Origin: a virus
Taxonomy: Duplodnaviria > Heunggongvirae > Uroviricota > Caudoviricetes
DNA: 6,182 nucleotides
Virus record (IMG/VR): IMGVR_UViG_2744054976_000007
Coordinates: 1-6,182 of that record
Direction: 5' to 3' (one strand)
In this document: positions 1 through 6,182 of the stretch, in pieces
How positions within the stretch are numbered: position 1 is the stretch's first letter
How the letters are laid out: each line of letters begins with the position of its first letter
Position numbers and translations under genes: made by a program
The notes under the pieces: generated by a model
The model's input: the letters and a program-made list of their open reading frames with translations, nothing else
What the model was told of the DNA's origin: nothing
The model's database searches: none

Positions 1-560
1 AGCGCAGCTTCCTCGGCAACAGCGGCAGGAAATTCCGCGAAGGCGGCAAAAACGTCCGAGACGAACGCTAAGTCTTCTGAAACAGCAGCGGGACAGAGCG
101 CCTCAGCTGCGGCAGGTTCAAAAACAGCGGCTGCGTCGTCTGCCAGTGCTGCGTCAACAAGTGCCGGGCAGGCCTCAGCCAGTGCCACCGCTGCCGGAAA
201 ATCGGCAGAAAGCGCCGCATCATCCGCTTCAACAGCCACAACGAAGGCTGGCAGCCACTGAGCAAGCCACTGCAGCAGCGAGGTCTGCTTCTGCAGCAAA
301 AACCTCTGAAACAAATGCAAAGACTTCAGCAGACAATGCTGCTTCCTCTAAGGCGGCAGCCGCATCGTCCGCTGGTTCAGCGGCGTCATCGGCATCATCT
401 GCGTCTGCTTCAAAAGATGAGGCGACCAGACAAGCGTCAGCAGCGAAAGGTAGTGCCACGACAGCAACAACGAAAGCATCAGAGGCGGCAGGCAGTGCGA
501 CGGCTGCATCTCAGAGCAAAGTTGCTGCTGAATCCGCGGCAACGCGTGCCGAAACAGCGG
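1..560 (+). repeat. Quasi-repetitive Ala/Ser/Thr-rich coding repeats (KTSETNAK-type) of the tail-fibre shaft
   Basis: Reiterated gcngcn/tcngcn codons give repeated AAKTSETNAK and SASAA motifs in the translation. This low-complexity region also explains the spurious overlapping ORFs on both strands (68..265, 229..459, 348..563, 315..701). Confidence 0.5.
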
Positions 561-2062
561 CAAAACGGGCAGAGGATATTGCTGATGCCGTATCTCTGGA
601 AGATGCGAGTACGACGAAAAAAGGTGTGGTTCAGCTCAGTAGCGCCACTAACAGCCCGTCTGAAACGCTGGCTGCGACACCAAAAGCGGTTAAGGCGGTA
701 ATGGATGAAACGAACAAGAAAGCGCCCTTAAATAGTCCTGCACTGACCGGAACGCCAACAACGCCAACTGCGCCAAAAGGTACTAATAATACTCAGATCG
801 CAAGTACGGCTTATGTGATGGCCGCGATTGCCGCCCTTGTAGACTCGTCGCCTGACGCACTGAATACGCTGAACGAGTTAGCGGCGGCGCTGGGCAACGA
901 CCCGAATTTTGCGACCACCATGACTAACGCGCTTGCGGGTAAGCAACCGAAAGATGCCACCCTGACGGCGCTGGCCGGTCTTGCTACTGCGGCAGACAGG
1001 TTTCCGTATTTTACGGGGAATGATGTCGCCAGCCTGGCAACCCTGACAAAAGTCGGGCGGGATATTCTTGCGAAATCGACCGTTGCTGCCGTTATCGAAT
1101 ACCTCGGTTTACAGGAAACGGTAAATCAGGCTTCTGGCGCATTACAGAAAAACCAGAACGGCGCAGATATTCCGGGAAAAGATACCTTCACCAAAAACAT
1201 TGGTGCCTGCCGCGCATATAGCGCATGGCTGAATATTGGTGGCGATAGTCAGGTCTGGACAACTGCGCAATTTATTTCGTGGCTGGAGAGTCAGGGGGCA
1301 TTTAACCATCCTTACTGGATGTGCAAAGGCTCATGGGCTTATGCAAATAATAAGGTTATTACAGATACAGGTTGCGGAAATATTTGTCTTGCAGGTGCTG
1401 TGGTGGAAGTTATTGGCACTCGCGGCGCAATGACCATACGCGTTACTACGCCGAGCACGTCCAGCGGTGGCGGAATTACTAACGCTCAATTCACTTATAT
1501 TAATCATGGTGATGCTTACGCTCCTGGCTGGCGACGAGACTACAACACGAAAAACCAGCAGCCTGCATTTGCTTTAGGGCAAACAGGACGCAGGGTCGCA
1601 AATGATAAAGCTGTTGGCTGGAACTGGAATAGCGGTGTTTATGATGCAGATATCAGTGGTGCATCGACATTAATCCTCCACTTCAATATGAATGCGGGGA
1701 GTTGCCCTGCTGTACAGTTCCGCGTGAATTACAGGAACGGCGGTATTTTTTATCGTTCAGCGCGTGATGGTTATGGCTTTGAAGCTAACTGGTCAGAGTT
1801 TTACACCACAACACGCAAACCCTCTGCGGGGGATGTTGGTGCATATACGCAGGCAGAATGTAACTCAAGGTTTATTACAGGTATTCGCCTTGGCGGTCTG
1901 TCATCTGTTCAGACATGGAAAGGCCCCGGCTGGTCTGACAGGTCAGGTTATGTCGTTACGGGTTCAGTTAACGGAAACCGTGATGAATTAATTGATACAA
2001 CTCAGGCAAGGCCAATTCAGTATTGCATTAATGGGACGTGGTATAACGCGGGGAGTATTTAA
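1..2062 (+). CDS. Side tail-fibre protein (constant region plus variable C-terminus Sv); 5'-partial at the window edge and interrupted by an apparent 1-nt frameshift near 250-261
   Basis: Frame +1 from nt 1 reads SAASSATAAGNSAKAAKTSETNAKSSETAAGQSASAAAG...STATTKAGSH and stops at 259-261. Frame +2 (the 146..2062 ORF in the track) continues with the same motif type (EQATAAARSASAAKTSETNAKTSADNAASS...) and is open to the stop at 2060-2062. The frame +2 translation upstream of ~250 is Pro/Gln/Arg-rich and unlike a fibre, so the true gene changes frame there. Downstream are a conserved fibre domain (KKGVVQLSSATNSPSETLAATPKAVKAV...AAVIEYLGLQETVN) and a variable C-terminus ending PIQYCINGTWYNAGSI. Family assignment is from recalled lambda Stf / Mu S / P1 S / e14 Stf proteins. 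Confidence 0.85.
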   Translation, partial: AQLPRQQRQEIPRRRQKRPRRTLSLLKQQRDRAPQLRQVQKQRLRRLPVLRQQVPGRPQPVPPLPENRQKAPHHPLQQPQRRLAATEQATAAARSASAAKTSETNAKTSADNAASSKAAAASSAGSAASSASSASASKDEATRQASAAKGSATTATTKASEAAGSATAASQSKVAAESAATRAETAAKRAEDIADAVSLEDASTTKKGVVQLSSATNSPSETLAATPKAVKAVMDETNKKAPLNSPALTGTPTTPTAPKGTNNTQIASTAYVMAAIAALVDSSPDALNTLNELAAALGNDPNFATTMTNALAGKQPKDATLTALAGLATAADRFPYFTGNDVASLATLTKVGRDILAKSTVAAVIEYLGLQETVNQASGALQKNQNGADIPGKDTFTKNIGACRAYSAWLNIGGDSQVWTTAQFISWLESQGAFNHPYWMCKGSWAYANNKVITDTGCGNICLAGAVVEVIGTRGAMTIRVTTPSTSSGGGITNAQFTYINHGDAYAPGWRRDYNTKNQQPAFALGQTGRRVANDKAVGWNWNSGVYDADISGASTLILHFNMNAGSCPAVQFRVNYRNGGIFYRSARDGYGFEANWSEFYTTTRKPSAGDVGAYTQAECNSRFITGIRLGGLSSVQTWKGPGWSDRSGYVVTGSVNGNRDELIDTTQARPIQYCINGTWYNAGSI
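1092..1117. other. Left crossover site of the Din-type invertible segment (gix/pix-like 26-bp site) inside stf
   Basis: TTATCGAATACCTCGGTTTACAGGAA at 1092-1117 matches the recalled gix/hix/pix-type site. The reverse complement of 4145-4170 is TTATCTAAAACCTCGGTTTACAGGAA, a 24/26 match. Extended inverted repeat 1092-1131 versus 4131-4170 is 35/40 identical with a perfect 25-bp core (1101-1125 / 4137-4161). The site encodes VIEYLGLQE at the constant/variable boundary; the predicted exchange point is the central dinucleotide 1104-1105. Confidence 0.75.
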
Positions 2063-2064
2063 CG

Positions 2065-2598
2065 ATGATGCACTTAAAAAACATTACTGCTGGCAACCCT
2101 AAAACAAAAGAGCAATACCAGCTAACAAAGCAATTTAACATCAAATGGCTTTATTCAGATGATGGAAAAAACTGGTATGAGGAACAAAAGAATTTCCAGC
2201 CAGACACTTTGAAAATGGTCTATGACCATAACGGCGTTATTATTTGTATTGAAAAGGATGTTTCAGCAATTAATCCAGAGGGTGCAAGCGTCGTTGAATT
2301 ACCTGATATTACAGCAAATCGCCGGGCTGATATTTCGGGGAAATGGATGTTCAAAGATGGCGTAGTGATAAAGCGAACTTATACCGAGGAAGAGCAGAGG
2401 CAACAAGCGGAAAATGAAAAGCAAAGCCTGTTGCAACTTGTCAGGGATAAAACCCAGCTATGGGACTCACAGCTACGGCTGGGCATCATTTCCGACGAGA
2501 ATAAACAAAAATTAACCGAGTGGATGCTCTATGCGCAGAAAGTCGAATCTACAGACACTTCCGGCCTGCCAGTAACGTTTCCCGAACAACCAGAATGA
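2065..2598 (+). CDS. Tail-fibre assembly protein (Tfa chaperone) for the Sv fibre tip
   Basis: 177-aa ORF beginning 3 nt after the stf stop, with GGAG about 8 nt upstream. N-terminus [40 protein letters not shown] is typical of the phage Tfa/U family and about 70% identical over ~120 aa to the convergent ORF at 2627..3154. Confidence 0.9.
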   Translation: MMHLKNITAGNPKTKEQYQLTKQFNIKWLYSDDGKNWYEEQKNFQPDTLKMVYDHNGVIICIEKDVSAINPEGASVVELPDITANRRADISGKWMFKDGVVIKRTYTEEEQRQQAENEKQSLLQLVRDKTQLWDSQLRLGIISDENKQKLTEWMLYAQKVESTDTSGLPVTFPEQPE

Positions 2599-2602
2599 GA
2601 GA

Positions 2603-2629
2603 AGGCCCGCTATCGGGCCTTAATTTTTA
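2603..2629. terminator. Putative bidirectional rho-independent terminator between the convergent tfa genes
   Basis: AGGCCCG-CTAT-CGGGCCT (2603-2620) forms a 7-bp GC-rich stem with a 4-nt loop, followed by TAATTTTTA on the + strand and a pyrimidine-rich stretch on the - strand. It lies in the 28-bp gap between the two tfa stop codons. Confidence 0.5.
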
Positions 2630-3154
2630 CTCTGGTTTTTGTGGCCATTCAGGATTTGCCGTATCCACACGGCTGGCCAGAACACTGTAGCGTTCCCATG
2701 CTTCCAGTCGTGTGCGTTCCTCGTCTGTTGCCATATTCAGCCTGACAGCGCGTTCCAGCGGTTGGATGACTGATTCAGCTTCGGAAAGCAATGCGGCCTT
2801 TTGTGATTCGGCCTGTTGTTGTTGCTCGTCTGCCGTATAAATCCGTTTAACCACAGCTCCGTCCCTAAACATCCACTTACCGGAATCATCAGCGCAGCGG
2901 TTGGCTGTAATATCTGGAACCTCAACGACGCTATAACCTTCAGGGTTAAGCGTGGAGGCATCTTTGGTGATGGCGACAATAATATTATTTGCATCGTAAA
3001 CAATCTTTATTGTGTCTGGCTGAAAGTTTTTCACTTCCTCATACCAGTTTTTTCCGTCTTCGGACCATAACCAGATAACATCAAAATTCTTTGTTAGCTG
3101 ATATTGTTCTTTTGTTTTTGGATTTCCAGACTTAATATTTTTTAAATGCTGCAT
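2627..3154 (-). CDS. tfaE: Tail-fibre assembly protein (Tfa') paired with the alternative fibre tip Sv'
   Basis: 175-aa [57 protein letters not shown]...; matches my recollection of E. coli e14 TfaE. Position and orientation (immediately downstream of Sv' on the - strand) fit the Mu U' / e14 tfaE arrangement. Symbol is from memory, not a search. Confidence 0.9.
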
Positions 3155-3157
3155 AAA

Positions 3158-4120
3158 TTACACCTGTACGACGTTATACCATGTGCCATTGATGTATTTT
3201 TGTATTGGTCTGAATACTGCCGGATCATCGCCATCAACTGCACCGATAATGCCAAGCCCCGTAATTGCATGACCTGATTTCTCATACATCACGCCTTTTT
3301 GCATAGTCTGAACAACACGTGTACCAAGTCGGACATCTCTCACATAACGTGAGTCAAAATTACCATAATTGCCGGGAATAACTTGCGCACCGCAAAGCCA
3401 GTTGCCATTGTTGTCCATGTACGCCTGACCATCGGTGCCATTGGCTGTCCTTGAGTTATTAATCATGTAGATGCCAAATTGCTTATTCCCCAGTCCACCA
3501 ATCATAAATTTGCGATCAGCGTGGTCCTGACGAAGTAATGCCTGCGCACCATCGGTGGATACCGCATTGCGTCCCAAAATAACATTCTGGTCACGCATAT
3601 GAATCCACATGCCGGTACTACTGTTAATTGCAAAACGGTTTGCAAATATATCCCCTGTAACATCAAGACCATGCCCCATGCTTATCCGACCAGTTCTGAG
3701 ATTAAGCGTAAAGGGGCGTAGTGGCCCTATATCACCATTTTCTCCCTCATTCTCTCGTGTAGGGATGATATGCAGGCATTCTTCAGAACGACGAAAAATA
3801 GCACCAAAAGATGAATTAAATATCCTCAGTGCATTGACTGTCGATATTTTTACTTCACTGCTGAAAAGGGCTTTAACAAGGACAGACAAAGCATCCCATT
3901 TAAGAGTCATCAGGTCTTTTGTTGTGGTGCTCTGGCGGCTTCTCCATTTGAAATATTCATTGCCGTTGTCGCCTGTTTCAAACCACATGTATGAATCAGT
4001 GTCGCTGTCGGCATTATTTTTAAAACCAATCTTTGCCCAGTCAGTATTTCTAATCCAGGCAAGGATTGAGTCGTTTTCAAAAGTAAGCCCACCGGACAAG
4101 GTATCGCCATTCTTTTGCAC
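3158..4120 (-). CDS. Alternative tail-fibre C-terminal segment (Sv'), start-less and expressed only after inversion fuses it to the stf constant region
   Basis: Open frame on the - strand from the in-frame stop at 4163-4165 down to the stop at 3158-3160; the track starts it at a GTG (4118-4120). After the crossover site it reads LGLQETVNRARNAVQKNGDTLSGGLTFEND..., sharing LGLQETVN with the + strand fibre, and ends PIQKYINGTWYNVVQV (compare PIQYCINGTWYNAGSI). No SD or start of its own; the real coding extent probably begins at the crossover (~4157). Confidence 0.8.
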   Translation of the reverse strand: MQKNGDTLSGGLTFENDSILAWIRNTDWAKIGFKNNADSDTDSYMWFETGDNGNEYFKWRSRQSTTTKDLMTLKWDALSVLVKALFSSEVKISTVNALRIFNSSFGAIFRRSEECLHIIPTRENEGENGDIGPLRPFTLNLRTGRISMGHGLDVTGDIFANRFAINSSTGMWIHMRDQNVILGRNAVSTDGAQALLRQDHADRKFMIGGLGNKQFGIYMINNSRTANGTDGQAYMDNNGNWLCGAQVIPGNYGNFDSRYVRDVRLGTRVVQTMQKGVMYEKSGHAITGLGIIGAVDGDDPAVFRPIQKYINGTWYNVVQV

Positions 4121-4144
4121 GGCGTTCCTGGCCCTGTTTACCGT

Positions 4145-4170
4145 TTCCTGTAAACCGAGGTTTTAGATAA
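4145..4170. other. Right crossover site of the invertible segment (gix/pix-like), inverted relative to 1092-1117
   Basis: TTCCTGTAAACCGAGGTTTTAGATAA; see left site. The two mismatches lie in the outer half-site, and an in-frame TAA sits in that outer half on the - strand reading. Confidence 0.75.
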
Positions 4171-4224
4171 TGGCGGTTTCTGGCCTGCATGGCATGATTT
4201 GTGCTTTTGGACGGGAGATTCAGC

Positions 4225-4515
4225 GTGCTGATTGGCTATGTAAGGGTATCAACAAATGACCAGAATACAGACCTGCAACGAAACGCTCTTGTTTGTGCAG
4301 GATGTGAACAAATATTTGAAGATAAATTAAGCGGAATAAGGACAGGCCGACCTGGATTAAAACGTGCTTTAAAGCGCCTTCAAAAAGGTGACGCACTGGT
4401 TGTCTGGAAACTGGACTGACTGGGTCACTGTATGCGGCATCTTGTCGTGCTGGTGGTGGAAGCCTGGAAGAAGTATCGGGTGTTGCTGAACCGTGTTGAT
4501 ACGTCAACTGCACAG
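4225..4515 (+). pseudogene. pin: Din-family DNA invertase (Pin/Gin/Hin-like serine recombinase) remnant: premature stop after codon 65, 3' part decayed and deleted
   Basis: From GTG 4225: LIGYVRVSTNDQNTDLQRNALVCAGCEQIFEDKLSGIRTGRPGLKRALKRLQKGDALVVWKLD then TGA (4417-4419). Recalled Gin/Pin proteins continue WKLDRLGRSM...; here the Arg codon position is TGA. The next ~30 codons still read [15 protein letters not shown]...NRVDTSTAQ (compare LGRSMKHLISLVGEL...TDSIDTSSP) before homology stops near 4515. The track's 4201 start is an upstream in-frame GTG. Confidence 0.8.
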
Positions 4516-4639
4516 GATATTGAATGGCCAGCACTGCCGTAGGGTAAAACATATAAATTCTATAATTAGATGTATCTTTCCATTTACGGCAAGGAAGGGG
4601 GCTTGGAAGACGTAAAGCATCTCACACTGAGATTATTTT

Positions 4640-5230
4640 TTATATGTCAGGTGTCTGAAGTTTTGCTTTGGCTCTTAAAATGGTTTGCCGCGAGGTTTTG
4701 AATTCCCGGGCAATGGCACTTATACTTACACCTGACTTAATTCGTTCGAATACCACCTGTTTCTGTTCTTCATTTAACACAGGTAGTCGACCAAAACGTT
4801 TCCCTGCGCCGCGGGCTCTTACTATCCCGGAATGAGTGCGTTCAAGTAAAAGGTCTCGTTCAAATTCAGCGACTGCTGAAATTACTTGCATCATCATTTT
4901 TCCTGTTGGACTGGTCAGGTCAATGCCAGCCAATGCTAAGCAATGCACTCTGATACCTGTTTCGGTCAGTTGTTCCACTGTTTTCCTGATATCCATTGCA
5001 TTACAACCAAGGCGATCCAGTTTTGTCACAATCAATTGATCACCACATTTCAGGCGAGCAAGCAACCGGTTAAAACCAGGACGCTCACTGGTTGCTGCTG
5101 AGCCGCTAATGTGTTCTTCGATTATTTGCTGAGGTTTGATTTTAAAACCTGCACTTTCGATTTCCCGGCGTTGATTTTCGGTGGTCTGATCCAGCGTTGA
5201 TATCCGACAGTAAGCAAAAATTCGAGACAT
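4640..5230 (-). CDS. Small serine recombinase (resolvase/invertase family), intact, not the cognate Din invertase
   Basis: 196-aa [25 protein letters not shown]... with the catalytic-serine motif (RISTLDQ), the KLDRLG motif and a C-terminal resolvase-type HTH ([23 protein letters not shown]). Only distantly similar to the pin remnant. Weak SD (GAG about 9 nt upstream). Confidence 0.9.
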
Positions 5231-5351
5231 AGTGAGACTCTATACGAAATTGGTGTTCATATCATAATGCATCTCAGAAAATAATTATGATTATTTTTGT
5301 GCATATTTGTATGTACACGTTCGAAAATAAACGAATGCGTATGCAACCCCG

Positions 5352-5390
5352 TAATTTTGGTGAGACCCAAAATCGATTTTGTGAAAAATG
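5352..5390. promoter_or_regulatory. Palindrome cluster upstream of the recombinase gene: candidate operator or recombination (res-like) site
   Basis: Perfect 14-bp palindrome CAAAATCGATTTTG (5368-5381), overlapping the inverted repeat ATTTTGG-N6-CCAAAAT (5354-5373) and followed by ATTTTGTGAAAAAT. Resolvase-family res sites typically sit just upstream of the recombinase gene; functional assignment is inference only. Confidence 0.25.
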
Positions 5391-5546
5391 GCTTTAACTC
5401 GGTTTGTTTTTCGAGTTCCGGGCGGACTCAAGGAAGAAGAATAGTGTTGCGTGTTATTTTAACCAGATTTCAAGTTGTTTGGTCGTGGAAAAGTGGAGCA
5501 AAATGTTGTTAAAGTGGAAAAATGATAAAAAAGTAAGTTTATTATA

Positions 5547-5780
5547 TTACATTTTACCATTTAAATTTTGGTTGTCTTTAAGAACTGATATCGCTGTTTG
5601 TAATAATTCTTTGTTATCCAGCCATGATTTTTTCTTTATGTTTCCTTCAATGTAATCAAGCAATGTTCTGGTATTGATAGGTCTTCCCTGTTTTGCTACT
5701 TCCACTACAGCATTCCCTAGGATAATTCTTACTTCAGGAAGCTGCGCAGGGAACCACTTTAGGGTGTCTTTTGATTTCAT
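5547..5780 (-). CDS. Hypothetical small protein (77 aa from the SD-supported ATG; 88 aa if the upstream ATG at 5813 is used)
   Basis: ORF MKSKDTLKWFPAQLPEVRIILGNAVVEVAKQGRPINTRTLLDYIEGNIKKKSWLDNKELLQTAISVLKDNQNLNGKM. AAGGAA lies 7-8 nt upstream of the ATG at 5780, whereas the ATG at 5813 has no SD. Same strand as, and 316 bp upstream of, the recombinase gene. No family recognised. Confidence 0.5.
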   Translation of the reverse strand: MKSKDTLKWFPAQLPEVRIILGNAVVEVAKQGRPINTRTLLDYIEGNIKKKSWLDNKELLQTAISVLKDNQNLNGKM

Positions 5781-6182
5781 GAAGATATTCCTTAAAATAT
5801 TATTGATTTTCATTGCGATATTGTATGTCTGATTCAGGATATGTTGACTTATACATCGGTTTTGTCTGGGTTATTGGATATGCCAATCCCTAATTTTATT
5901 AGGGCATAACTAAAAATGCTGAATATGATAAGGAGAGATGTGATTATCAGTATGCTGTTCATATAGCCTCGAATTAGTAATGTGTTATATATGATATAGT
6001 TGACAATTTTTATCTTGGGTGTTCTTAAAGTTCGTAGATAAACATTGTCGTTTCAGGTATACAGGAATGCTAACAGGTGGCAGCAAAAATCAGGCGGTTT
6101 ATGGCGCAAGCTGAAGCGGCAACTGCAAACTATCTTATGCAGAGACTCTACACAGATTGGGTTTAAAAGTATACATAGATAA

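Follow-up and report, generated by a model that had tools for sequence, protein, structure and literature searches.

The closest described relatives of the tail-fibre cassette analyzed here are the G segment of phage Mu, with its invertase gene gin, and the corresponding region of P2-like prophages, for instance that of UTI89. Like the present locus, both have two inverted 26-bp sites and paired S/U and S'/U' gene sets, and both are found in two orientations. The present locus differs from them in that its invertase gene breaks off after codon 77 and has a stop at codon 65, and inversion in trans would be required; in addition, the cassette lies in a lambdoid tail-fibre gene, not in a Mu or P2 genome. 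The e14 P segment and PinE are likewise an invertible tail-fibre switch adjoining a Pin-family gene. There, however, an intact PinE is encoded, the 1.8-kb P segment has other sites and genes, and the DNA over the pin 5' end is 74% identical.

Two further systems are relevant to the right part of the locus. The Rac prophage of K-12 ends in tfaR-pinR-ynaE-ynaM (b1373-b1375, b4744), with the same gene order, strands and uspF/ompN/nifJ neighbours as here, and Qin has a paralogue of this end, tfaQ-pinQ-ydfK. In K-12 Rac the last 28 tfa codons are preceded by the rest of tfaR and by stfR, whereas here they are preceded by a Mu G-type cassette and a dead invertase gene. The TnpR/Res resolvases of Tn3-family transposons and plasmids resemble PinR in protein sequence (57-84% identity), in a colinear res-like region in the 110 bp upstream and in a conserved recognition helix. 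Unlike theirs, the PinR gene lies in a phage accessory region, lacks adjacent transposase or partition genes, has lost three of five half-site cores upstream and encodes Cys in place of Arg71.

The stretch of DNA analyzed here (the window, 6,182 nucleotides) is, in the explanation that best fits it as a whole and that we consider highly probable, the right end of an Escherichia coli Rac-family lambdoid prophage. Its left part (about 600-4456) is, to judge from its sequence, an invertible tail-fibre cassette of the Mu G/P2 type, with the following features:

1-2062, plus strand: 3' part of a chimeric side tail-fibre gene, stf (RefSeq "prophage tail fiber N-terminal domain-containing protein")
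1092-1117, no strand: left 26-bp crossover site of the gix/pix type, TTATCGAATACCTCGGTTTACAGGAA
2065-2598, plus strand: tail-fibre assembly gene, Mu U-like, inside the segment (Caudo_TAP, E = 2e-36)
2627-3154, minus strand: alternative tail-fibre assembly gene, Mu U'-like (Caudo_TAP, E = 4e-37)
3158-4144, minus strand: alternative tail-fibre C-terminal segment, Mu S'v-like (open reading frame 3158-4120, Pfam Gp34_trimer)
4145-4170, no strand: right 26-bp crossover site, TTCCTGTAAACCGAGGTTTTAGATAA, one position off the Mu site in the alignment

The stf gene is StfR-like and lambdoid up to about 693 (86% to K-12 stfR over 1-693) and resembles P2 H and Mu S from about 618 (92% to the UTI89 P2-like tail fibre over 618-1112). 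Its constant part stops at the left crossover site, and its variable C-terminus occupies 1118-2062. Both crossover sites lie inside a 38-nt inverted repeat (1088-1125 and 4137-4174, 92% complementary), which provides the two inverted 26-bp sites expected of a segment of the Mu G, P1 C or e14 P type. Between them, two opposed sets of fibre C-terminus and assembly gene are present, as identified by the Caudo_TAP and Gp34_trimer matches and by 87.5% identity to the Mu G segment over 1089-4170. The alternative C-terminal segment is annotated in RefSeq as a phage tail protein, without an N-terminus, and after inversion it would be fused to the constant part of stf. P2-like prophages in which an intact invertase gene is followed by tail genes are 96-98% identical to the cassette.

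To the right of the segment, the invertase gene is interrupted:

4225-4456, plus strand: pin' remnant, codons 1-77 of a gene for a Gin-type DNA invertase; pseudogene
4454-4460, no strand: pin'::'tfa junction, in frame, placed by alignment within the microhomology TGGTGGA
4457-4542, plus strand: 'tfa remnant, 3'-terminal 28 codons and stop codon of a lambdoid tfa of the Rac tfaR type, ending in DIEWPALP

A full-length Gin or Pin protein has about 185-200 residues, including an E-helix and a helix-turn-helix domain, whereas the pin' fragment covers only positions 2-73 of the 145 in Pfam Resolvase before joining tfa after codon 77, with a TGA at 4417-4419 (codon 65). Its first 112 nt (4225-4336) show 0 differences from Mu gin, and codons 66-77 align more closely with e14 pinE than with gin. 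The sequence at 4457-4542 matches positions 105-130 of 131 in PF02413 (Caudo_TAP; E = 2e-12), is identical to K-12 tfaR and is continuous with K-12 tfaR-pinR, at 99% from 4454; matches to tfaR or tfaQ begin at window positions 4451-4458 in thousands of genomes. As these alignments have it, the 3' end of pin is replaced by 86 bp of tfa. An in-frame fusion protein was considered and rejected, since the shared TGA lies upstream of the junction.

A probe spanning the junction detected pin'::'tfa in 536 of 5426 complete E. coli genomes (about 10%), and the possibility of an assembly artefact was rejected because these are independent complete genomes. Of the 50,697 records of a phage collection, 0 span the junction; Mu- and P2-like matches there cover only 4100-4415, and Rac-like ones only 4454-4640. 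In every carrier examined, pin' is a truncated pseudogene, and no functional invertase gene lies next to the segment. Strain ET76 has the identical junction at the bio/ybhB site beside a diguanylate cyclase gene, with 99.8% identity to window 1-4533, and WGS1363 has it at the trp site, where a methyltransferase gene and then trpA come next. Neither has pinR downstream. Other prophages are similarly alike over window 1-4533 and divergent from about 4533.

The remainder of the window consists of the following:

4640-5230, minus strand: pinR, an intact 196-aa small serine recombinase gene (Pfam Resolvase and HTH_7)
5241-5343, minus strand: degenerate res-like array and probable pinR promoter, from colinear alignment with relatives
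5241-5262, 5272-5303 and 5318-5343, minus strand: site III-like, site II-like and site I-like subsites of this array, from alignment
5547-5780, minus strand: ydfK/ynaE, 77 aa (RefSeq "cold shock protein YdfK")
5849-5962, minus strand: ynaM, a 37-aa small protein gene (PF23676, NF041477)

An initial annotation had correctly recognized an intact 196-aa recombinase of the resolvase/invertase family on the opposite strand and a 77-aa open reading frame upstream of it on the same strand. Comparison with K-12 identifies them as PinR (194 of 196 residues identical to b1374) and YnaE (75 of 77), both standard, already annotated genes of the Rac end. In this reading, the resident accessory ("b") region of Rac/Qin-type phages comprises, in order, the final 28 tfa codons, pinR convergent to them together with its decayed res-like region, ydfK/ynaE and ynaM. 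From 4454 to 6182, the window is 99.0% identical in DNA to the tfaR end, pinR, ynaE and ynaM of K-12 Rac; its identity to the intact phage HannyBb is 98.7%. A search of 5426 complete E. coli genomes found 80% or more of window 4100-6182 in 2672 of them, the majority without pin there, and the largest class of matches starts at 4454 and is annotated as tfaR. The order tfa 3' end, convergent pinR, ynaE/ydfK, ynaM, attR and uspF recurs in the annotated regions of K-12, TUM9868 and E89; the block stops about 330 bp before attR and uspF, and the chromosomal flanks (uspF, ompN, nifJ) are those of K-12.

The same annotation had taken the pinR/ydfK DNA for an AT-rich island that was inserted into a once-intact pin, or replaced its 3' end. 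GC content does drop, from 48.2% over 1-4542 to 38.0% over 4543-6182, although pinR itself is still at 44.5% and only the spacers, ydfK and ynaM are truly AT-rich (28-37%). The drop had been placed at about 4540, "exactly where pin homology ends", but pin homology stops at 4454-4460. The composition step instead coincides with the tfa stop codon (4540-4542), because 4457-4542 is tfa, contiguous with K-12 tfaR-pinR. There is a real mosaic joint nearby, as the divergence at about 4533 among prophages that share 1-4533 indicates a module boundary near there, but it was not the island that cut pin. The 86 bp of tfa separate the two; the same tfa 3' end precedes the island, behind an intact tfaR, in K-12 Rac and in about 2670 genomes, most of them without pin; tfa-pinR is carried by Rac-like phages; and the same truncation of pin, with the same tfa remnant, occurs at the bio and trp sites in ET76 and WGS1363 without any island. 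Displacement of pin by the pinR block is contradicted by the identity of the junction across 536 genomes and at these other sites, and we regard it as very improbable. A comparison with what follows an intact pin in related genomes had also been suggested. None of the intact-pin relatives found is lambdoid, so that this comparison does not apply literally; they are P2-like or Mu-like, with tail genes or com/mom after pin.

A different history would account for the mosaic. In the order and number of recombination events that we infer, a Mu G/P2-type invertible cassette, comprising part of stf, the two crossover sites, two opposed fibre/assembly sets and 77 gin-type codons, would have been joined once to a lambdoid tfa 3' end, by illegitimate recombination at the 7-bp microhomology, with loss of the C-terminal 60% of the invertase. 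The chimeric host-range module may then have spread among lambdoid prophages by homologous recombination, anchored in the common 5' part of stf and in some 80 bp at the 3' end of tfa, and one such exchange would have placed it beside the Rac pinR block.

The open reading frame over ydfK/ynaE extends mechanically to 5813 (88 aa), and Pfam has no family for its protein; YnaM scores 92.6 bits against PF23676 (curated cut-off 27) and 62.2 bits against NF041477 (curated cut-off 35). An Rfam search with E up to 1 gave only sub-threshold matches (IS009, 45 bits where the gathering score is 117, and isrG), and nothing in these matches supports an RNA element. Over 4100-6182, a scan found nine promoter-like sites where 5.2 were expected, which is uninformative, and 0 terminator-like sites. 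A repeat search around pinR returned short, weak repeats only; one 20-nt pair (4793/5741, 80% complementary) looks like chance and was set aside.

Orientation was counted with synthetic probes for each orientation, extended through the junction and requiring at least 80% coverage. One orientation was found in 142 genomes and the other in 130; among the 130 are some in which the match is to a P2-like prophage whose invertase is intact, and such matches extend no further than 4415. At the Rac site, the listed genomes divide 9 to 9 between the orientations, at 99.7-100% identity. In strain 1217KP the inversion breakpoints fall inside 1088-1130 and 4133-4174, so that both orientations occur with breakpoints at the sites, as in segments of the Mu G type. 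Since the cassette's own invertase gene is dead, yet both orientations stand behind one junction, the cassette would have been flipped in trans. The orientations strongly support the conclusion that it still inverts at its 26-bp sites by means of an invertase supplied in trans.

In principle, the orientation differences could come from homologous exchange with intact-pin phages instead of inversion. The segment would then be frozen, with the two orientations an ancient polymorphism or the product of such exchange. The invertase is dead in all 536 of 536 carriers, and common P2-like phages with 96-98% identical segments could donate either orientation. Nonetheless, a single junction and a single Rac flank, at 99.7-100% identity, accompany both orientations, the breakpoints lie inside the 38-42-bp repeats that hold the crossover sites, and exchange would have to involve, every time, crossovers no more than about 300 bp from pin'. 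A frozen segment is accordingly judged quite unlikely.

If inversion in trans continues, the helper is most likely a Gin/Pin-type invertase of a co-resident P2-like, Mu-like, P1-like or e14 element. In one carrier, 2017.02.04CC, e14 is absent at icd and there is no second gin-type pin 5' region, so that no canonical helper invertase is evident in it. The recombinational enhancer of such systems is bound by Fis and lies within the invertase gene in Mu, and in Salmonella some 100 bp away from a hix site. Because 4225-4336 is 100% identical to Mu gin, an enhancer of the Mu type would be kept there, and the retained gin 5' end probably supplies a Fis-dependent enhancer in cis, for which 4225-4336 is the candidate location. 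A scan for the Fis consensus GNNYAWWWWWTRNNC with at most one mismatch gave seven matches where 7.0 are expected by chance; one of these, at 4318-4332, lies in the region, a chance frequency that is of no use as evidence for an enhancer.

The presence of pinR beside the segment raises the question of whether PinR could be the helper. PinR is a small serine recombinase by its domains (PF00239, E = 4e-36; PF02796, E = 5e-10), and its best matches in the PDB are Gin and gamma-delta resolvase. It had been described as unrelated to Pin and as possibly belonging to another element with its own target sites, and both points are borne out in substance. PinR is only distantly related to e14 Pin (38% identity). 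At 57-84% identity it is matched by resolvases of plasmids and of the Tn3 family whose genes are preceded by a three-subsite res array; among them are an IncI/K plasmid resolvase encoded near parM (84%) and a Shewanella protein (76%) whose divergent gene adjoins a Tn3 transposase gene (DDE_Tnp_Tn3, E = 1e-148). DNA homology to the plasmid module extends over 4595-5286. The region 5241-5343 aligns without gaps and colinearly with the three-subsite arrays upstream of five plasmid and transposon relatives, with two of five CGAAA/TTTCG cores kept. A search of the window for the half-site TGTMCGAAA gave two matches against 2.65 expected, so that there is no intact set of PinR-type sites elsewhere in the window. 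The window has no TnpA match, and the neighbours of pinR are tfa and ydfK, not transposase or plasmid-maintenance genes. On these comparisons PinR belongs to the plasmid/Tn3 resolvase lineage, and its gene and upstream array would be a stranded plasmid/Tn3-type resolvase module.

In Tn3 resolvase, Y6, R8, S10, D36, R68 and R71 are crucial for catalysis, and mutation of R71 abolishes recombination (PMC2794168). PinR keeps four of these (Y7, R9, S11 and R73) and, like its whole clade, has Glu in place of D36. At the R71 position, both a motif table and PDB alignments place Cys (codon 76, 5003-5005). This Cys is found in 9 of 9 Escherichia, Shigella and phage PinR/PinQ sequences examined, while Arg occupies the position in all 12 relatives with the motif intact, as well as in Gin and gamma-delta resolvase. 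Invertases that depend on Fis and the enhancer have, in helix B, K47 and Lys or Arg at 48 and 51 (Hin numbering), and in Hin Fis contacts Gln151, Arg154 and Leu155 in helix 1 of the DNA-binding domain (PMC3798978). Gin, PinE, UTI89 Pin and the pin' fragment of the window have K, R/K and K/R at the first three positions, where PinR has N54, R55 and A58; Gin, PinE and UTI89 Pin retain Q..RL at the second three, where PinR has V, E and R. Simple decay of pinR is argued against by a dN/dS of 0.14 relative to the plasmid homologue and by an intact open reading frame in thousands of genomes and in a functional phage. PinR probably catalyses poorly and is probably not the enzyme that serves the adjacent segment.

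A recent report (PMC12529663, 2025) bears on this question from another side. It states that inversion of the e14 P segment rises from 30% to 88% when PinQ, which is 99% identical to PinR, is over-produced, and it concludes that PinQ and PinR are active invertases on Pin-type sites. If that is correct, PinR could flip the neighbouring segment, contrary to our own inference. PinR may on this account be a working invertase of the orphan segment that took over after the cis invertase died, as a tail-fibre or defence switch. Besides the reported inversion of the P segment in trans by over-produced PinQ/PinR, such a role is favoured by the flipping of the segment after pin was truncated, the position of pinR 470 bp from the right crossover site, and the one carrier that lacks both e14 and a second gin-type pin. 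However, Cys replaces the catalytic Arg71, both signatures of Fis/enhancer-dependent invertases are absent, and the recognition helix of PinR, TSRQTILR, matches that of resolvases using upstream half-sites of the TGTCCGAAA type, not gix-type sites. Nor does pinR regularly accompany a segment flanked by 26-bp sites: more than 2600 genomes, and Rac-like phages, have pinR without an invertible segment, a segment lies beside pinR in about 18 of the genomes listed, and in hundreds of carriers the cassette is elsewhere, with pinR not adjacent. In that report, the over-production assay is described in a pinE+ host, deletion of pinE locks the P segment despite the presence of pinQ and pinR, and the sections considered describe no PinQ over-production in a pinE-deleted host. 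It seems unlikely, then, that PinR is the working invertase of this segment. We consider it a similarly long shot that PinR keeps orphan Gin-type segments flipping, either through unorthodox catalysis or by activating another recombinase; if it were true, pinR and the cassette with its dead pin would together form a functioning, cross-wired switch for host range or against phages, as has been claimed for PinQ and the e14 P segment.

The genes that first drew attention to this locus are standard annotated parts of one of the best-known cryptic prophages, and finding them adds little, although some by-products could matter to specialists. PinR and PinQ, recently reported as active anti-phage invertases, are of the resolvase lineage, with a degenerate res region and Cys at an essential arginine, and this ancestry and substitution call for a direct biochemical test of the claim made in PMC12529663. 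One fossil junction is present in about 10% of complete E. coli genomes and, with it, a Mu G-type switch without its own invertase, the orientation of which is still changing. It may be regarded as a natural case of trans-dependent phase variation, and the kept gin 5' end suggests that an enhancer in cis makes such trans-dependent flipping possible.

The features of the window are as follows.

up to 2062, side tail-fibre gene, 3' part
2065-2598, plus strand, tail-fibre assembly gene
2627-3154, minus strand, second tail-fibre assembly gene
3158-4144, minus strand, alternative tail-fibre C-terminal segment
starting at 4225, short recombinase-like ORF (pin')
4640-5230, minus strand, intact 196-aa recombinase (pinR)
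5547-5780, minus strand, 77-aa ORF (ydfK/ynaE)
5849-5962, minus strand, 37-aa ORF (ynaM)

The 196-aa and 77-aa ORFs described in the initial annotation are thus real, as is the step in composition, from 48.2% GC over 1-4542 to 38.0% over 4543-6182 (pinR alone is at 44.5%). However, this step near 4540 falls at the tfa stop codon and not, as had been proposed, exactly where pin homology ends, which is at 4454-4460. The spacer between ydfK and pinR contains a direct repeat (GTGGAAAAGTG / GTGGAAAAATG, 5485-5495 and 5514-5524, 29 bp start to start).

The AT-rich island is an annotated and very common piece of the Rac prophage. The 196-aa protein is PinR, which matches K-12 PinR at 194 of 196 positions but shares only 38% identity with Pin, the e14 invertase; the 77-aa ORF encodes YdfK/YnaE (75 of 77 residues as in K-12 YnaE), and the 37-aa protein is YnaM, with scores exceeding the curated Pfam and NCBIfam cut-offs. 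The stretch 4454-6182 is 99.0% identical to K-12 Rac (tfaR end, pinR, ynaE, ynaM), whose annotated right boundary, ttcC, would lie about 330 bp past the window end, and uspF, ompN and nifJ come next in window-matching genomes, as in K-12. Of 5426 complete E. coli genomes, 2672 contain at least 80% of 4100-6182; matches of the main class begin at 4454 and carry the annotation tfaR-pinR-ydfK-ynaM. This block also lies between the tail-fibre genes and int/xis in functional Rac-like phages (HannyBb, mEp460, Tritos and others).

The 3' end of pin was replaced by 86 bp of tfa and not, as first suggested, by the pinR island. In a six-way alignment (A1), invertase homology ends ...GTGCTGGTGG(T)GGA and tfa homology starts ...TGG(T)GGAAGCCTGGAAGAAGTATCGG, which places the junction at 4454-4460, in frame and inside a 7-bp microhomology. 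Positions 4459-4539 match positions 105-130 of the 131 in Pfam Caudo_TAP (E = 2e-12), the remnant ends ...DIEWPALP* as does K-12 TfaR, and tfaR/tfaQ matches start at 4451-4458 in thousands of genomes. At 4417-4419 the pin fragment reads TGA, against CGC or CGG in intact genes. It is also a mosaic: as far as 4415 it shares 93-95% identity with gin of Mu and of P2-like elements, while codons 66-77 of pin' (4416-4456) are much nearer to e14 pinE (36/41 nt) than to gin (23/41). A sub-threshold Rfam IS009 match (4429-4508; 45 bits, with a gathering score of 117) extends over the junction, and is probably just tfa 3'-end sequence contained in the seed of that model.

The pin'::'tfa junction is old, arose once and does not depend on pinR. 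A 204-bp probe across it was matched, at a coverage of at least 80%, in 536 of the 5426 genomes. Prophages at the bio/ybhB site contain window 1-4533 at 99.8% identity (e.g. ET76, with a diguanylate cyclase gene after the tfa remnant), and a diverged copy at the trp site of WGS1363 is followed by a methyltransferase gene. No record in the phage collection crosses the junction; the matches to Mu-like and P2-like phages are confined to 4100-4415, and those to Rac-like lambdoid phages to 4454-4640. The relatives that keep an intact invertase beside a 96-98% identical segment are P2-like prophages, where convergent tail genes come after pin. In Mu, com and mom come after gin, and an intact pin did not turn up in any lambdoid relative. 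In HannyBb (phage coordinates 7670-7830, aligned with window 4400-4560), a different, independent junction lies about 30 nt away and joins the same tfa remnant. This tfa end has thus been the right-hand joint of tail-fibre module replacement on at least two occasions, and the separate junction points to the tfa 3' end and pinR as a stable right-hand anchor for such exchange. HannyBb is an intact Rac-like phage in which tfa is likewise reduced to a 3' remnant before pinR, with an upstream gene other than that of the window.

To the left of pin', the cassette aligns with the whole Mu G segment at 87.5% identity over window 1089-4170, and it is bounded by 26-bp sites (1092-1117 and 4145-4170) within a 38-nt inverted repeat. 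Probes for each orientation, extended through the pin'::'tfa junction, matched at least 80% in 142 genomes for the window orientation and 130 for the inverted one, the latter count taking in some intact-pin P2-like prophages whose matches end at 4415. At the Rac site with a Rac-type tfa end, the orientations are found in 9 and 9 genomes, at 99.7-100% identity. In strain 1217KP the inverted block corresponds to 1088-4174, with breakpoints inside 38-42-bp repeats. In several Rac-site carriers (E89, PK8568, SZQ1 and CFSAN064036) the left part of the cassette is lost; in E89 (10093-12060 of its locus) a truncated ynaK precedes inverted tfa' and stf' pieces. Such orphan segments, with a single crossover site, cannot invert.

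No working invertase adjoins the Mu-G-type segment (1088-4174), yet both orientations lie behind one unique junction. Since that junction is a single rare event, the two orientations imply that the segment flipped later than the loss of its own invertase, and from this distribution of orientations, rather than from any inversion directly observed, we infer inversion in trans. It is established that Gin, Cin, Pin and Hin cross-complement one another, as also described in PMC12529663. One carrier, strain 2017.02.04CC, was found to have neither e14 at icd nor a second gin-type pin, and this leaves some room for PinR acting on the neighbouring segment, which we nevertheless consider quite improbable.

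Inversion in trans may draw on what is left of gin. Over its first 112 nt (4225-4336) the remnant does not differ from Mu gin, against an identity to Mu of only 87.5% for the G-like segment as a whole, as would fit a conserved cis element (a Fis enhancer) that overlaps the coding sequence. The Mu stimulating site lies inside the invertase gene, according to the title of Kahmann et al. 1985 (cited in PMC3798978), and the Hin enhancer is described as an element of 65 bp, roughly 100 bp away from a hix site (PMC3798978). By analogy with these placements, the remnant would probably still supply the enhancer.

PinR itself probably is a poor recombinase. Every Escherichia (including E. coli and E. 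ruysiae), Shigella and phage PinR/PinQ examined reads KLDRLGC, where 12 plasmid and transposon relatives read KLDRLGR. In HMMER alignments to Gin and gamma-delta resolvase, this Cys76 (codon at 5003-5005, a single C-to-T change from the plasmid homologue) falls at the catalytic Arg that both possess (R71 of Tn3 resolvase), one of six residues in Tn3 resolvase at which mutations eliminate recombination and make cleavage about 1000-fold slower (PMC2794168). Two features described as marks of Fis-dependent invertases (PMC3798978), the helix-B Lys/Arg pattern and the Gln151/Arg154/Leu155 patch, are also missing from PinR (alignment A3), which is probably not the natural partner of gix-type sites. 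A dN/dS of 0.14 against the plasmid homologue indicates that the pinR ORF was constrained for much of its history.

Cys76 sits oddly with a 2025 report of PinQ/PinR as active invertases (Kirigo et al., PMC12529663), in which over-produced PinQ, 99% identical to PinR, drives inversion of the e14 P segment and blocks T2 adsorption. As described there, the inversion assays ran in pinE+ cells and the P segment was locked by a pinE deletion. Such a deletion would also take out any enhancer inside pinE. For the Keio pinE deletion (e14 locus of K-12, 5686-6240), loss of PinE and loss of a cis-enhancer are inseparable, which weakens inferences on the relative roles of PinE and PinQ.

The closest PinR relative outside Escherichia/Shigella is an IncI/K plasmid gene near parM (84% identity), and others (57-77%) occur in Erwinia, Shewanella, Budvicia, Photorhabdus and more. 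The Shewanella relative is divergent from an adjoining Tn3-family transposase (Pfam DDE_Tnp_Tn3, E = 1e-148), two further relatives are beside transposase fragments, and no tail-fibre or YdfK homologues were found next to any of these genes. Erwinia oleae (1268-2652 of its locus) has two paralogous PinR-like resolvase genes back to back, 71% and 77% identical to PinR, with mirror-image res-like arrays that have one central site in common, an unusual arrangement for a resolvase module. All these relatives have an upstream three-subsite array of TGTCCGAAA / TTTCGTACA half-sites (alignments A5 and A6). DNA homology with the plasmid module extends over 4595-5286 (82.8%), and the pinR upstream region, 5241-5343, is colinear and gapless with the plasmid and Tn3-family arrays; two of the five CGAAA/TTTCG half-site cores are kept there and three are mutated, and K-12 is identical. 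The initial proposal that the recombinase comes from a different type of element and has sites of its own is partly right. On our reading, PinR would be a resolvase module that was left stranded when it came to lie in the accessory region of Rac/Qin-type phages.
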